Positions 5,328-48,513 of a DNA stretch of 64,000 nucleotides are shown here, one piece after another. The stretch lies in assembly GCA_050575255.1 (NCBI GenBank), contig JBNZDD010013542.1, positions 590,955 to 654,954 of the forward strand, given 5' to 3'. This DNA comes from Harriotta raleighana (lineage: Eukaryota). The position numbers and the translations under genes were made by a program. Positions within the stretch are counted from its first letter, which is position 1, and each line of letters begins with the position of its first letter. The notes beneath the pieces were generated by a model that saw nothing but the letters and a program-made list of their open reading frames with translations, had not been told where the DNA came from and did not search any database.

Positions 5328-5420
5328 TTACAACTCGTACGCTTCCATGAGATAATCCTTTGGGACAATACCAATGATACCCTTCAGCTCTCCAACCCAC
5401 CAACCGTCTGAATTGTACTC
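5328..5420 (-). CDS. SKAP1: SKAP-family adaptor, last coding exon (EYNSDGWWVGELKGIIGIVPKDYLMEAYEL*)
   Basis: Acceptor tttctccttcttttcag|GAG, phase 0, matching the donor at 48400. GWWVGE..G.VPK.Y completes the SH3. TAA at 5330-5328 is followed 2 nt later by donor AG|gtaggt. Confidence 0.95.
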   Translation of the reverse strand, partial: EYNSDGWWVGELKGIIGIVPKDYLMEAYEL

Positions 5421-17492: not shown

Positions 17493-18486
17493 AGCGTGCG
17501 TAAAACTAGTGTATATGTGCTAGCTGGCCCCTGGGCTCATGCGCACGGGTGAAGACGCCGAAGCTCCCGTCTAAATCCAATGATTCCTCGGCTGGCTGGT
17601 CCCATGTGCATGCGCATTTTTGACGAGGCTGGCAGATCCCAACTAAAGCTGATGATTCCTCGGCTGGCTGGCCCCACGGACATTGCATTCCTGGGTAAAT
17701 ACAATAATGCTTTGGCCTCGGAGAATCCTATTGGATTGCATGCTAAACAGAAGAGACAGAGAGAGAGACAGGATCCTACAGCAATGTAGCCTAATCTACT
17801 CTGTTGTTTTATTGCTTTTTTTTATTGCTTCACTGCTTTGTTATCGCTTTATTATAGCAATAAAGTGATAACAAAGCCGTTGTAACCTTTCTGCATCTCT
17901 CGTCCAGACCGCCTGTGACTCTCTGCACCCCCGCATGCCCCCGAGCTGTTCTCTGCCCCCCAACTCCGCGAGTCCCCTCTGCCCCCGATCGGCTCTCTGC
18001 TCCTCACCTCCCTGAGTCTCCCCCCTGCCCCGAGTGGCTCTCTGCCACCCACCTCCCCGAGTCCCCCCTGCCTCCGAGCGGCTCTCTGCCCTCCATCTCC
18101 CCGAGTCCCCCCTGCCTCCGAGCAGCTCTCTGTTCCCTCCCCCACCGCCCACCCGCCGCTCTCCCCGATTTCTCTCTGCTTCCCTCCCAGGCTGCCTTGA
18201 TTTGCCTACTTCCTGGGTGGTAGGAGAGACGAGAGCAGGTGGAACGGAGGGGGGGGGGAGCAACACAAGCGGGGAGAAGTGGGCGGAGCAAGGAGCGGGG
18301 CAACCAGCTGTAGCCCGCCTCAGTAGGTATCTTGCATCTCATGTGCTGGAGGCTTGAGGTGGGTAGCCTGCGACTGGATTCCCCTAACCCCCCTTTTCCC
18401 ATTACATCTTAAACTTCTCCAATGCGATTTCGTTGAGTGCGCAGTTTTCCAGGAACGTAACCCCCGTGATTGACGAGGGTTACCTG
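17493..18486. mobile_element. Tigger/pogo-like non-autonomous DNA transposon remnant with internal GC-rich minisatellite
   Basis: Right end ...gacgagggttacctg|TA is Tigger-like. An approximately 44-bp tandem unit runs from about 17925 to 18135. The left TIR was not found. Confidence 0.55.
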
Positions 18487-22251: not shown

Positions 22252-22961
22252 CAGGCAGTCCTCAAATTACGTCAGGGTTAGGTTCCTGAGATGTGGTGTA
22301 AGTCAAATTTGTATATAAGTCGAGTCACCTCCCTATAATGCTTACAGTAACATATAGTGATTGGTTATAGTGTATAGTGAGCTGCCCTCTCTCCCCTGCA
22401 CCCCTCCTAATATGTACAGTTCTGTAAATAAAATAAAATATTACATGGCTTCATTGTGAGTCTGGCACTCGATGTAGCGCAACACAGGAGATCACACGCG
22501 ACGTAGCGCAACGCAGGGGATCACACGCGATGTAGCGCAACGCAGATCACATGCGACATTGCGCAACTCAGGAGATCACATGTGACGTAGCGCAACGCAG
22601 ATCACGCGTGCCGTAGCGCAACCCAGATCGCACGTGACGTAGCGCAACGCAGATCACACGTGACGTAGCGCAGTCTAAAGGCTGGAGAGTACTGTCCCGC
22701 CGAACTCACAGACTCACACAGTACCTGTACAGTACACACTCGCGTCTCGCCTCCATCCTGTTCCTGAACGCGTATCGTGGTCCCATAAGTGTTGAGAGCG
22801 ACGACTCCAGTTTTCTATCGCGCGTGGGGCAACTAAAGTATTTACATAGTAGTGTCGTAACTTCGAGAACTTGGATGTAACTTGGACGTAATTTTACTGA
22901 TTTTAAGTGTCGTAACTTTGAATTGTCGTACCTCGAAACGTCGTAACTAGAGGACTGCCTG
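22252..22961. mobile_element. Tc1/mariner Tigger-like MITE, complete
   Basis: TIRs CAGGCAGTCCTCaaaTTACGtC and (reverse complement) CAGGCAGTCCTCtagTTACGaC, with a TA target duplication on both sides. Confidence 0.9.
22470..22673. repeat. CpG-rich minisatellite, 26-29 bp unit (gacgtagcgcaacgcag[gag]atcacacgc), about 7.5 copies
   Basis: Directly visible tandem array inside the MITE. Confidence 0.9.
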
Positions 22962-28744: not shown

Positions 28745-29340
28745 TACCACTGTCTCACCTTATCCCCGTACCCCTTCAAACCCTTCTCTGTAATATGCCT
28801 TTCTACTTCCATCTCAAAAGCTACAATCAATCAATCAAAATTTTATTTATATAGCGCCTTTCACATCGGGAGGACGTCCCAAAGCGCTGTACAGCCAAGT
28901 AGGGGGGGAGGGCTCAGGGAAAGGAGTAGGAAAAATTGATTGTATATTTGTGGGCGAATGGGTCTCCACTTCCACCATTACTCAGCAGGGGTTCATATCC
29001 CAACAACAGCCTCAGTGAAAAAAATCCTTCTAAATTCTCTTTTTGCTGTAAGTGTAGAAACATGAATATTAATAAATTTATTTTTTATTTTTAAAAAATG
29101 CTATCCATTTGTAAAACTAATCGATACATCTAAAACATTCCATTAATTGTGCATTCAAAGGAGGTGCCACAGAGACCAATAAACTGTGGTTTGTGGGTGA
29201 GCAGGTCTGCAACTCTATTTCCAACATCTGAAAAACACTGTTAATAATTAACCATGTCTGCCAGCAGCTATGCCATTATCATGCTGGGCAGGATGTGGAA
29301 AAGTGTAGAGGGAGCTTTATTCTGCATCTGTCCCATGAAG

Positions 29341-29687
29341 TTGTGTAGCTTTGTGGTTAGAGCCTTTGCCTCGCAGGCCAGAGGACTGGGGTTCAATTCC
29401 CGGGCAGGGAGAAATGTTAGGCAAATTTCCCGACTATACAGTCCTCTGCTTACCTCGCAGTAAATTGGAACCAGATTGTTGTGGTTCCCTTTCTAGTGTA
29501 ATAATCCCTTAAAAAAAACATTTGGTCACTCAATCCACACTGTTTGTGGGACACTGCTGAATGCAATTGGATGCTGTGTTTTGCCCACAAAATATTGTCA
29601 ATTCACTATGCAGTATATTCTATGAAGTGCTTTGAAATGTCTCAAAAATGTGATAAGGCACTATATCAAATGCAAGCATTATTATGA
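29341..29687 (+). mobile_element. tRNA-derived SINE, long subfamily
   Basis: Head with gttcaattcc, internal cctctgcttacctcgcagtaaattgg, body and tail. Confidence 0.85.
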
Positions 29688-29715
29688 TGAATGTGAACCT
29701 GACCTGGTAATGCTG

Positions 29716-29816
29716 AATGGGACTGACTGTACAGCTTCACTCTGTATTAATGGGACTGACTGTACAGCTTCACTCTGTATTAATGGGACTGACTGTACAG
29801 CTTCACTCTGTATTAA
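29716..29816. repeat. Perfect 33-bp tandem repeat, 3 copies (aatgggactgactgtacagcttcactctgtatt)
   Basis: Three identical units visible. Confidence 0.95.
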
Positions 29817-30472
29817 ACCTCTGCTGAAGCTGTCCTGGGAGTGTTAGATGGGGCAGTTTAAAGGGTGCTTCATTCTATATCTAACCAGCGTTGTACCTGA
29901 CTTGGAAATGCTGGATGGATTTGGACAGCTTCTCTCTTACAGAGGATCACACAAACATGATTAAATGAAGACATTAAGACAATGACTTTACATGCATTTG
30001 TTCACTAATCACCAGCAGTGATTCTAACAGTGAGAGTTATGAGCACTTTGAAATGTCCGCCTGATGTGAAAGGTGTAAATGTAAATGACTCTGCTGTGTT
30101 CTCCAAATTTAACGCATTTGCCAATGTTCATGTACAAATAATACAACAAATTAGTATAATAATTTTCACTGCAGCAGTGTAAAACCACTCTTTATTGAAT
30201 GCATTCTTCCAAACCCAGATGTTTCTCTATTTTATAAAATCGTATTAGTTGTAAACTACATGAAAACAGTTTTTGGAAATACTAATTAGATTTTTTTTAA
30301 GTGGAAAGATGTCTCACCGATTGCAGCAATGTTATAAAACCGGCCTAAATTGGCAAAGGTGACGTCACAGGCACACAGATGGTTTCCCTGGTTACGAGCT
30401 GAGCGAGTGCTCATTTCCTTGATACCCCACAGGCTTCAGACACCTGCTTTTTTTCCAACCAACCCTCAAAGG

Positions 30473-30489
30473 AGGTCATCTGGAGGTCA
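30473..30489 (+). promoter_or_regulatory. DR5 retinoic acid response element motif AGGTCA-tctgg-AGGTCA
   Basis: Perfect consensus match in repeat-free DNA; function is inferred. Confidence 0.55.
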
Positions 30490-31823
30490 CGAGGGGATAA
30501 AAATCTCCATCTGAATAATAAACTGTTTACTGCACGCACTCACAACACGGCTACAGAAGCTGAAGTTTACGTACAGGGAAATCTTAATTCACACAAATTA
30601 CTTTTTTTATTAAACAATGGGAAAGGCTGCTCTATCGAAGCTGGCAAGAGCAGAGTACTTGGGAGCAAAGCAGGGCAGGGCAAAGCCCTGAAGTGTGTCA
30701 GCAATCCTTTCGTCCATTGAATCCCTTATTCAAGGCAGAGAAATGAGCTGTAATCTTATTGTGAAACAGTGTTTGATCTGATCCTCACTTAACCTTTCCC
30801 TTTTGTGCTCTCAAAGTGTTTTATTTCCTCGCTCCCATTTAACACTTCCTGTACACCTCCTCTATAGCTTCCACTTCCCATCCAGCTGAGCGGACAGCAT
30901 GTCCTTGTTTCTGTCTGTGTCACTGAAGGACTGACCACTGGGTGACCGGACAGTAAAGTTCACTCGTGATTCACTCACCCCTCCCTCTCTGAGTGAAAGT
31001 GGTCGCTTTCTGCTCATCTCCAGCCCAATTTGGAGACTGAGATGTGCAACGTCTGCAGCATTATTAGCTCATCTTATAACAATAATAATCCTTACATTTG
31101 ACATGGCACTTTTGAGGATATTTCAAGGAGCTTCACAGATGTTTACTGTGAAGTATAGGGACTGTGTATTTGTAGGCGAATGCAAATTTGCATACAGTAA
31201 TGTCTCACAAACAGCTACTGATTGAGTGGCCAATTTCATCCGAGAGTTTTAACTAAGATCTTTAACATCCATTTGAATAAACAGACCTTGGGTTCGCTAT
31301 CTGATCCAAAGAATGCAGCACTCTAACAACGCAGAACTGTAGTGTCAACACCGACTGAGCCCCAACATGGGACTTGAACCGACAAACTACTGACTCAGAG
31401 GTGGCAATGCTACCAATTGAGCATGACCGAAATGCTAAAGATGAATAACTAACTGGCCAGCAGCCATATGACTTGTCTTCATTCCATAAAACGACTGTTT
31501 GTGGAACACTGCTGTGTGCAATTGACTGCCGTGTTTCACCCATGAATTCACTTTACAGTATATTCTGCAAAGCGCTTTTAGACATCTCCAGTGGTTCAGT
31601 TGCATCACTTGTCTCCCCTGGGACCTTCCTCTTTGACCATGTCTTTTGACACCCTCCTATGTTGCACCTACTTGATTAACCCCAGTTTGGGTGCAAACCC
31701 TTAACTGTCCAATGGGACATCAATCTGACTTGAAAGACGCTATATAAATGTAATTTTTTCTTGTTTTTTTAAATGAGTCCAGCATCCAAACCTCAACCAT
31801 TATTCCTGGCAACCTGTGTAATT

Positions 31824-34132
31824 ACTCTCTGTGTCACAACTCACTCCATGTAATCCACTTGTCCTGTCTCCTGTCCTGACTGAGACAAGCTAACTTAGCA
31901 GTGACTTAGCAGGAATTCAATCTGTGATTTTCCGGTCTGTCTGTGTGGTACATTGGATAGAGCTGAGAAAACAGGTTTATATCACACTCGACACAACCAA
32001 GAACAGCCGCAGAGCCCAGTCCAATTTTTCCCCAAAAGTGTAAAGTATTTGAAAGGGCAAATAGTATTTAACCTAACAACTAATTGACAATATTTCCACT
32101 GTATCTTTGTTTTGTTTTAGAGAAGATCCAATCCCTTGAATAATGTCTCCCTCAGTGATGTTTCTGAGGCCATTCTGCTGCTCAGCATTAGGTTTCATCA
32201 CAGACGGATAGTTAAGATGATGTTCAGCCATAAACTACACTGCTGACCAGAGAACCTCTCTAAATAGCCAACAGTATTGTCTCCAATTACACTTCAAAAC
32301 ACAGATTATTGTCCTTTTCCCTCTGCACACAGACATCCCTCTACCAATCATCCCACACATCCAAATTATTCTGAGAGATTCACCAAGCAAGGTGCTAATT
32401 TGAGATATTTAAGTTGTTTTATTCCCCTGCTGAAAGACCGGTGATTGGGTGAAATTCTCCTCCGACGGTCCCATCCCTCCATTTCCCTCCACCCTCCATC
32501 TACTGCTCGGGTCTGAAACAATGACAGTCCACTGCCTTGGGACGTCCTCCTGATGTGAAAGGTGCTATACAAGTGTAATTTTGTTTTTCTTGTTCTTTCC
32601 TGAAGAACGATGACTTATGCTTGGGTACAGTTCTTTTTCCTTTGTTTTGCCCACAAAAAATACAATCAATTCACTTTACAGCATATTCTGTGAAGCTCTT
32701 TGACACTTCCTAATATGATGACAACAACTTGCATTGATACAGCAGCCCTCACGCTGGGTAGTGTCCCAGATCTCCTGAGACACTATATCAAAGACAATAT
32801 AAGACTTTGCAAAGATTTTTAGTTATTATCCAAGTTACCAAATGTTTGGGCCTGAAAATAGAGACAGACTTTATAAACTATAAAGAAGTTTCTGCACAAT
32901 CAGAAATTTTAAGGCAACCGTCTTAATGTTAAAACCATAAGATGATTTGGGGCTCTAGTTTACTAATCTCCCCCCTGNACTCTCTGTGTCACAACTCACT
33001 CCATGTAATCCACTTGTCCTGTCTCCTGTCCTGACTGAGACAAGCTAACTTAGCAGTGACTTAGCAGGAATTCAATCTGTGATTTTCCGGTCTGTCTGTG
33101 TGGTACATTGGATAGAGCTGAGAAAACAGGTTTATATCACACTCGACACAACCAAGAACAGCCGCAGAGCCCAGTCCAATTTTTCCCCAAAAGTGTAAAG
33201 TATTTGAAAGGGCAAATAGTATTTAACCTAACAACTAATTGACAATATTTCCACTGTATCTTTGTTTTGTTTTAGAGAAGATCCAATCCCTTGAATAATG
33301 TCTCCCTCAGTGATGTTTCTGAGGCCATTCTGCTGCTCAGCATTAGGTTTCATCACAGACGGATAGTTAAGATGATGTTCAGCCATAAACTACACTGCTG
33401 ACCAGAGAACCTCTCTAAATAGCCAACAGTATTGTCTCCAATTACACTTCAAAACACAGATTATTGTCCTTTTCCCTCTGCACACAGACATCCCTCTACC
33501 AATCATCCCACACATCCAAATTATTCTGAGAGATTCACCAAGCAAGGTGCTAATTTGAGATATTTAAGTTGTTTTATTCCCCTGCTGAAAGACCGGTGAT
33601 TGGGTGAAATTCTCCTCCGACGGTCCCATCCCTCCATTTCCCTCCACCCTCCATCTACTGCTCGGGTCTGAAACAATGACAGTCCACTGCCTTGGGACGT
33701 CCTCCTGATGTGAAAGGTGCTATACAAGTGTAATTTTGTTTTTCTTGTTCTTTCCTGAAGAACGATGACTTATGCTTGGGTACAGTTCTTTTTCCTTTGT
33801 TTTGCCCACAAAAAATACAATCAATTCACTTTACAGCATATTCTGTGAAGCTCTTTGACACTTCCTAATATGATGACAACAACTTGCATTGATACAGCAG
33901 CCCTCACGCTGGGTAGTGTCCCAGATCTCCTGAGACACTATATCAAAGACAATATAAGACTTTGCAAAGATTTTTAGTTATTATCCAAGTGACCAAATGT
34001 TTGGGCCTGAAAATAGAGACAGACTTTATAAACTATAAAGAAGTTTCTGCACAATCAGAAATTTTAAGGCAACCGTCTTAATGTTAAAACCATAAGATGA
34101 TTTGGGGCTCTAGTTTACTAATCTCCCCCCTG
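31824..34132. repeat. 1154-bp direct duplication separated by one N (31824-32977 and 32979-34132)
   Basis: Offset is 1155. The only difference I noticed is T32836 versus G33991. Confidence 0.97.
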
Positions 34133-46568: not shown

Positions 46569-46585
46569 TGACCTGGAGTTGAACC
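46569..46585 (-). promoter_or_regulatory. DR5 retinoic acid response element motif GGTTCA-actcc-AGGTCA
   Basis: Plus strand reads TGACCT-ggagt-TGAACC, matching RGKTCA-N5-RGKTCA. Confidence 0.5.
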
Positions 46586-48400: not shown

Positions 48401-48513
48401 CTTGCTCAGGATCTGGATCATGTCTCCCCGCTGAAATGACAGCTCGTCCAACCCCTCGCTAGTGCAGTCCCACAGGCCTCGATAGTAGTTTGCATAACTT
48501 GAGACAGCATTTC
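48401..48513 (-). CDS. SKAP1: SKAP-family adaptor, SH3 domain N-terminal exon ([38 protein letters not shown])
   Basis: 113-nt exon with acceptor ctcttcttgaacag| and donor AAG|gtaaga. The YYxGLWDC...DELSFxRGD..ILSK pattern is the characteristic SKAP1/SKAP2 SH3; FQRGD favours SKAP1. Confidence 0.95.

Follow-up and report, generated by a model that had tools for sequence, protein, structure and literature searches.

How far anteriorly HoxB genes are expressed in the hindbrain and gut is determined by retinoic acid (RA), and a cluster of transcription factor motifs in the chimaera Harriotta raleighana raises the question of whether RA input to HoxB could extend to the far end of the neighboring SKAP1 gene. 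The window analyzed here is a 64-kb stretch of DNA (contig C13542, JBNZDD010013542.1, positions 590955 to 654954), and positions are those of the window unless the contig is named. A reading of the sequence alone had placed the cluster in a SKAP gene next to a Hox cluster, and the host is indeed SKAP1, beside HoxB and not HoxA. Its PH exon scores best to SKAP55, frog SKAP1 is the sole match to its SH3 exon (68%), and frog SKAP1 maps seven exons from 809 kb to 639 kb on the contig. Eleven homeoboxes are present on the same contig at 956 to 1097 kb, on the minus strand, and the nearest belongs to a Hox1 gene. In comparison with Callorhinchus milii, the first exon of this gene shares 94% identity with HoxB1 and 47% with HoxA1, which identifies the cluster as HoxB and agrees with a chimaera origin. 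We take the cluster identity from this exon and the SKAP exons because the paralogue-13 homeodomain slightly favored HOXA13 (103.5 bits) over HOXB13 (98.9 bits). A second SKAP gene (SKAP2) adjoins another Hox cluster, on contig C13656.

The motifs are located in the last coding intron of SKAP1, a 43-kb intron (5421 to 48400, minus strand; defined by splice sites and exon translations) that splits the SH3 domain. It lies between the exon coding for the first half of the domain (48401 to 48513, minus strand; identified by its translation, 68% to frog SKAP1) and the last coding exon, with the second half and the stop codon (5328 to 5420, minus strand; splice sites and translation), and the element lies at 42% of its length. 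This is likely intron 11, a number that presumes the usual SKAP1 exon numbering, with one short exon not found. On the same contig, the HoxB1 homeobox is 334.7 kb away, with the element on its 3' side. The element is thus within the gene-poor SKAP region beyond the 3' end of an anterior Hox gene, where a Hox 3' long-range enhancer would be expected. A chromo-shadow (CBX) gene is about 156 kb from the element on the opposite side, nearer than HoxB1.

The block containing the motifs (30100 to 31000) is single copy and repeat free by genome match count, repeat search, and Rfam search. Positions 30250 to 30650 have one match genome-wide, and 29900 to 30999 have no non-self match within the approximately 0.5 Mb of sequence searched. 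The block is flanked by repeats, with a short repeat piece in the bin at 30014 to 30095 of the relatives' contigs and repeats starting at about 31000; the only tandem repeat near it is at 29716 to 29816. The repeat-free intronic setting described at the outset is thereby borne out, and the block is noncoding and single copy, like a conserved noncoding element, with no Rfam family and no repeat hit. A repeat origin of the core was rejected, as no further copy was found, and a structured RNA was rejected with no Rfam match at an E value of 0.1 within 29000 to 32500. A 105-amino-acid stop-to-stop frame on the plus strand overlaps the core and is antisense to SKAP1.

All six motifs reported from the sequence (CRE, E-box, X-box-like, DR5, FOX, and ETS) are present at the positions first given. 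The most prominent is a perfect DR5 RARE consensus (AGGTCA-N5-AGGTCA, 30473 to 30489, plus strand), in which two RGKTCA half-sites, both AGGTCA, are repeated directly with a 5-bp spacer. An E-box overlaps this spacer, and the DR5 runs antisense to SKAP1 and HoxB. Upstream are a palindromic CRE with the CREB/ATF consensus (30360 to 30367), the sole copy in the window, an E-box with the bHLH consensus CAGATG (30376 to 30381, plus strand), and a degenerate RFX X-box-like site (30382 to 30395, plus strand). The last of these fits a loose RFX pattern and a strict pattern fitted to the site itself, but fails two other, stricter RFX consensus patterns. A forkhead (FOX) consensus (30524 to 30530, plus strand) closes the cluster, and an ETS core (30843 to 30851, plus strand) is 350 bp beyond the constrained core described below.

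How far these motifs exceed chance was judged with a third-order Markov background built from the 404 kb of the SKAP1-HoxB1 locus. The perfect DR5 is seen once per 64 kb against 0.016 expected, the CRE once against 0.59, and the loose X-box pattern three times in the window against 1.9, while FOX sites (33 seen, 29 expected) and E-boxes of the CAGATG type (57 seen, 48 expected) are at background density. In a ranking of 170-bp windows by a rarity-weighted score over 28 textbook motifs, a list composed after the site was seen, the window over the cluster is first in the 404 kb (8.24; runner-up, 7.2), and four or more of the 28 motifs occur in 1.8% of such windows. It is thus mostly the DR5, CRE, and X-box that raise the cluster above chance, with little contribution from the FOX site and E-box. 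The description of a dense cluster was overstated, because these latter two occur at background density. Perfect DR5s number 200 in 1.10 Gb genome-wide (about 0.012 per 64 kb) compared with 264 for a reversed control, and as they are not enriched the DR5 motif by itself proves nothing. A genome-wide catalogue of DR5s was reportedly assembled by Lalevee et al. in 2011. The 9-bp ETS core is seen five times in the window (30843, 34757, 43273, 53709, and 58075) against 0.8 expected, and 13 times against 5 in the 404 kb; lymphocyte enhancers of SKAP1 may account for this excess, or else a repeat.

Comparison with close relatives bears more directly on function. A search of read runs listed 12 holders of the sequence (of 15 rows), from four close organisms and one fish gut metagenome; no RNA data set was among those listed, which does not bear on expression. 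Four runs (X5, X6, X11, and X12) were compared over 29850 to 32300; the overall divergence of the relatives is 5.6 to 9%. Conservation of the core is given as bounds because 40 of the 175 differences are listed individually and the others enter through per-contig totals, with substitutions found only in X6 outside this view. Among these 40 differences, none changes any of the six named motifs (for the ETS core, in X5 and X6), and no substitution falls in 30344 to 30511, where covered, in any of the four runs. This 168-bp change-free run has a p of 0.001 to 0.004, provided that no unlisted change falls within it. The only listed changes within 30360 to 30530 are at 30512, in all four runs, which breaks a second E-box that is not among the six motifs, and at 30523, in X5; X6 also has two inserted bases immediately 5' of the CRE.

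The 170-bp core is about 1% different from the close relatives, compared with 6 to 7% in the flanks. In X11, substitutions number 1 to 2 in 169 core positions and 10 to 11 in 156 flanking positions (p 0.002 to 0.012); in X12, they number 2 in 157 and 9 in 147 of a neighboring piece (p 0.023); and in X5, 2 to 7 in 171 and 30 to 35 in 520 (p 0.002 to 0.26). Divergence is thus lower in the core than in the flanks, significantly so at worst case for X11 and X12 and at best case only for X5, although the runs are not independent, and the relatives amount to nearly one comparison because most differences are common to three of them. These comparisons suggest that the core (30344 to 30530, within the bounds given) is constrained among close relatives, over a short evolutionary distance only.

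The wider locus contains further RAREs. Across the 404 kb that run from below SKAP1 to HoxB1 there are seven consensus DR5s, against 0.61 expected from the Markov background or 1.33 from the mean of nine other spacers (Poisson p 5e-4), and each other spacer is represented by 0 to 4 direct repeats. Given this ratio of observed to expected sites, most of the seven are probably not chance occurrences. Within the sequence searched for repeats, none of the seven overlaps one. One is found 3' of HoxB1 at a distance of about 5 kb, three are in a large SKAP1 intron (698 to 809 kb on the contig) that is likely intron 4, two are in the last coding intron, and one is beyond SKAP1. The site near HoxB1 (contig position 950954), recovered by the same consensus scan, is where we would expect the classical Hoxb1 3' RARE. 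The chimaera DR5 shares its consensus and its 3' position with the classical Hoxb1 and Hoxa1 3' DR5 and DR2 RAREs, but these are within a few kilobases of their genes, whereas the chimaera site is 335 kb away. The large intron carries DR5s at contig positions 706456, 730351, and 759066 and DR2s at 723926 and 796427, the first DR2 overlapping a repeat hit. The second consensus DR5 of the last coding intron (46569 to 46585, minus strand) is 1.8 kb from the upstream SH3 exon and is not in a repeat. Two strict CTCF consensus patterns gave no sites in the 404 kb, these patterns being too strict to bear on boundaries.

Published data show that RA enhancers for Hox genes in SKAP introns are an established principle, and the idea is less new than first proposed. 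A DR5-like RARE in zebrafish skap1 intron 4 drives hoxb1b-like, RA-dependent GFP expression and has been proposed for long-range HoxB control (Lopez-Perez et al. 2021, PMC8608873). That RARE and the chimaera element are both SKAP1 intronic, 3' of HoxB, and of DR5 type, but the intron-4 sequence aligns from zebrafish to human and has been tested in transgenics, whereas the chimaera element is known from its sequence. Their positions differ as well: the chimaera element is in the SH3-splitting intron, and the large, likely intron 4 is closer to HoxB by more than 75 kb. The DR5 and DR2 sites of the large intron are instead candidates for the chimaera orthologues of the four published skap1 RAR sites.

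The supplements of the same study place zebrafish RARaa peaks 595, 596, and 597a/b at chr12:28,766,787-28,768,828, and peak 595 is the strongest of peaks 590 to 598, with a fold enrichment of 25.8 (PMC8608873). Three RA-induced ATAC peaks there are labeled as skap1 intron 11 of 12 and are assigned to psme3 by nearest transcription start site, and the interval chr12:28,766,670-28,768,828 takes in both these RA-opened peaks and the RAR peak that is strongest at the skap1 locus. This is likely the same intron as that of the chimaera element, the zebrafish sites being RAR bound and RA opened, and the DR5 at 46569 to 46585 could be the counterpart of one of its RAR peaks. The passages of the study covered here name neither the RAR nor the ATAC set, and the intron-11 peaks are missing from its table of RAR sites in conserved noncoding elements, which covers only genes that are RAR bound in both species; the Figure 4 legend describes more RAR sites at similar mouse and zebrafish places that are not alignable (PMC8608873). 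DR5 is the top motif of the zebrafish RAR peaks in these data, in 39% of peaks. Among the matches listed for mouse F9 cells, RAR/RXR peaks lie at mm9 chr11:96,603,229-729 (strong) and 96,599,322-822 (weak), both nondynamic and 25 to 29 kb from Snx11, and may fall in the SH3-splitting intron (PMC4446430).

Contacts of mouse HoxB by 4C increase toward Skap1 in E9.5 embryos (PMC9286507), and deletion of the human rs9303542 enhancer in a SKAP1 intron lowers HOXB7 and HOXB8 (PMC8017555). The latter resembles the chimaera element as a SKAP1-intronic, long-range element, the known action on HOXB being that of the human enhancer, but it was characterized in ovarian cancer cells and the passages covered make no link to RA (PMC8017555). 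In the literature covered, with most subscription journals and the Lalevee catalogue outside it, no RARE of the last SKAP1 intron, or of a chimaera, is named or tested in the studies listed, and the DR5 sequence string is absent from the text searched. Likewise, four supplement files of PMC7259794 have no Skap1 rows, the main text of PMC11040003 mentions neither "skap" nor "psme3", and the passages covered of 10.1101/2020.11.09.341016, PMC8599802, and 10.1101/111773 contain nothing on the element.

On the HoxA side, a paralogous copy at SKAP2 was rejected, the best match in the 29.7-kb SKAP2 intron having an E value of 0.07 and none being found in the 40 kb beyond; the core accordingly does not belong to a conserved noncoding element duplicated in 2R and common to HoxA/SKAP2. 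A perfect DR5 directly preceded by an extra half-site (a DR0+DR5 composite) is present at C13656:1669912-1669934, in the same orientation as the DR5 at 30473. It lies about 35 kb past the final coding exon of SKAP2, and the 3'-most homeobox of that Hox cluster is about 315 kb away. The flanks of the two DR5s align no better than random (p 0.37 to 0.46). The Hoxa1 distal e-site, about 150 kb downstream in the Skap2 region, is a long-range, RA-dependent enhancer with RARa peaks and likewise occupies the SKAP landscape 3' of Hox (PMC6649716). It differs in being on the HoxA/SKAP2 side, and the core is without similarity to the SKAP2 intron or the 40 kb beyond.

We read the 170-bp core, with moderate confidence, as an RA-responsive enhancer: RAR/RXR would bind its perfect DR5, and the anterior HoxB genes 335 kb away would be its likely targets. 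That the core is RA responsive at all is quite probable; that HoxB is its main target is somewhat better supported than not. It is likely an RAR/RXR-bound enhancer of the HoxB 3' landscape, a sister to the published skap1 intron-4 RARE enhancer and a distinct element. RAR/RXR would occupy the DR5 and recruit coactivators once RA binds, with the CRE, X-box, and E-box/FOX sites supplying signal and tissue input, by analogy in the neural tube or gut endoderm. The element would then loop to HoxB1-B4 and belong to a set of several shadow RAREs distributed through SKAP1; the RAR-bound cluster in intron 11 of zebrafish skap1 may be its counterpart. The candidate long-range RA enhancer of the sequence-only reading is in part strengthened, by its SKAP1/HoxB host, the constraint in close relatives, the RAR binding and RA opening in zebrafish intron 11, and the published SKAP1-intron RAREs and HOXB enhancers (PMC8608873, PMC8017555).

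The RA-responsive enhancer could instead mainly serve SKAP1 itself or genes beyond it on the SNX11/CBX1 side, which we consider unlikely. SKAP1 is a real alternative target because zebrafish skap1 is itself induced 12.5-fold by RA (PMC8608873) and is lowered by BMS493, and the CBX gene on the other side is closer than HoxB1. The SKAP1 promoter is distant too, however, as its exons can be followed to contig position 809 kb or beyond, more than 185 kb from the element, and activation of the human SKAP1-intron enhancer altered HOXB7/8 and not SKAP1 (PMC8017555); the Hox enhancers may be inducing skap1 only as a bystander.

COUP-TF binds DR elements promiscuously, and a real enhancer could be constrained for its CRE, RFX, and bHLH sites with the direct repeat used by another nuclear receptor such as COUP-TF, or unused. 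The constrained block covers all the motifs, beyond the DR5 alone, and the CRE is a single copy in the 64-kb window, but the selective enrichment of the DR5 spacing in the SKAP1-HoxB landscape (7 versus 0 to 4 for other spacers) and its place as the top motif of zebrafish RAR peaks (39%) argue for RAR, and we give this alternative rather little weight. The least probable alternative is that short motifs came together by chance in neutral intron DNA. It would fit the approximately 200 perfect DR5s genome-wide, no more than in the reversed control, the worst case for X5 (p 0.26), and the background density of the FOX site and E-box. Against it are the worst-case significance of X11 and X12, the 168-bp run if it holds no unlisted change, the rank of the cluster as the top rarity-weighted window in 404 kb, and a position that matches zebrafish RAR peaks (PMC8608873).

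Under the preferred reading of an RA-responsive HoxB enhancer, a far-distal RARE at the SKAP1 end would stretch the known HoxB RA landscape past 300 kb and would place the origin of that landscape in the ancestor of jawed vertebrates. What is gained is one more element and not a new mechanism, since RA enhancers for Hox in SKAP introns are already published. The finding directs attention to strong zebrafish RAR peaks with RA-opened ATAC counterparts that are filed under psme3, and the core offers a concrete 200-bp candidate fragment. A bolder and doubtful extension is that this is the ancestral, outermost HoxB RARE enhancer of jawed vertebrates, at the far end of SKAP1, with the strongest RAR site of the zebrafish locus overlooked through its filing to psme3 and the slow-evolving chimaera copy retaining a CRE-E-box-RFX-DR5-FOX grammar. 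Were this so, the chimaera copy could link mouse and zebrafish peaks that are not directly alignable, and the DR0+DR5 composite beyond SKAP2 would mark a preduplication RARE position common to HoxA and HoxB.

Several other features of the window are evident. A near-identical 1155-bp direct duplication around a single N at 32978 spans 31824 to 34132, with a 1012-bp identical run, and is most likely a scaffolding overlap artifact; elsewhere on the contig, at about 695.7 kb, an N is likewise bordered by a short repeat, here of exon sequence. There are also two tandem arrays, a GC-rich 44-bp array of 4.5 copies at 17936 to 18132 and a CpG-rich 26-bp array of 6.8 copies at 22489 to 22672.
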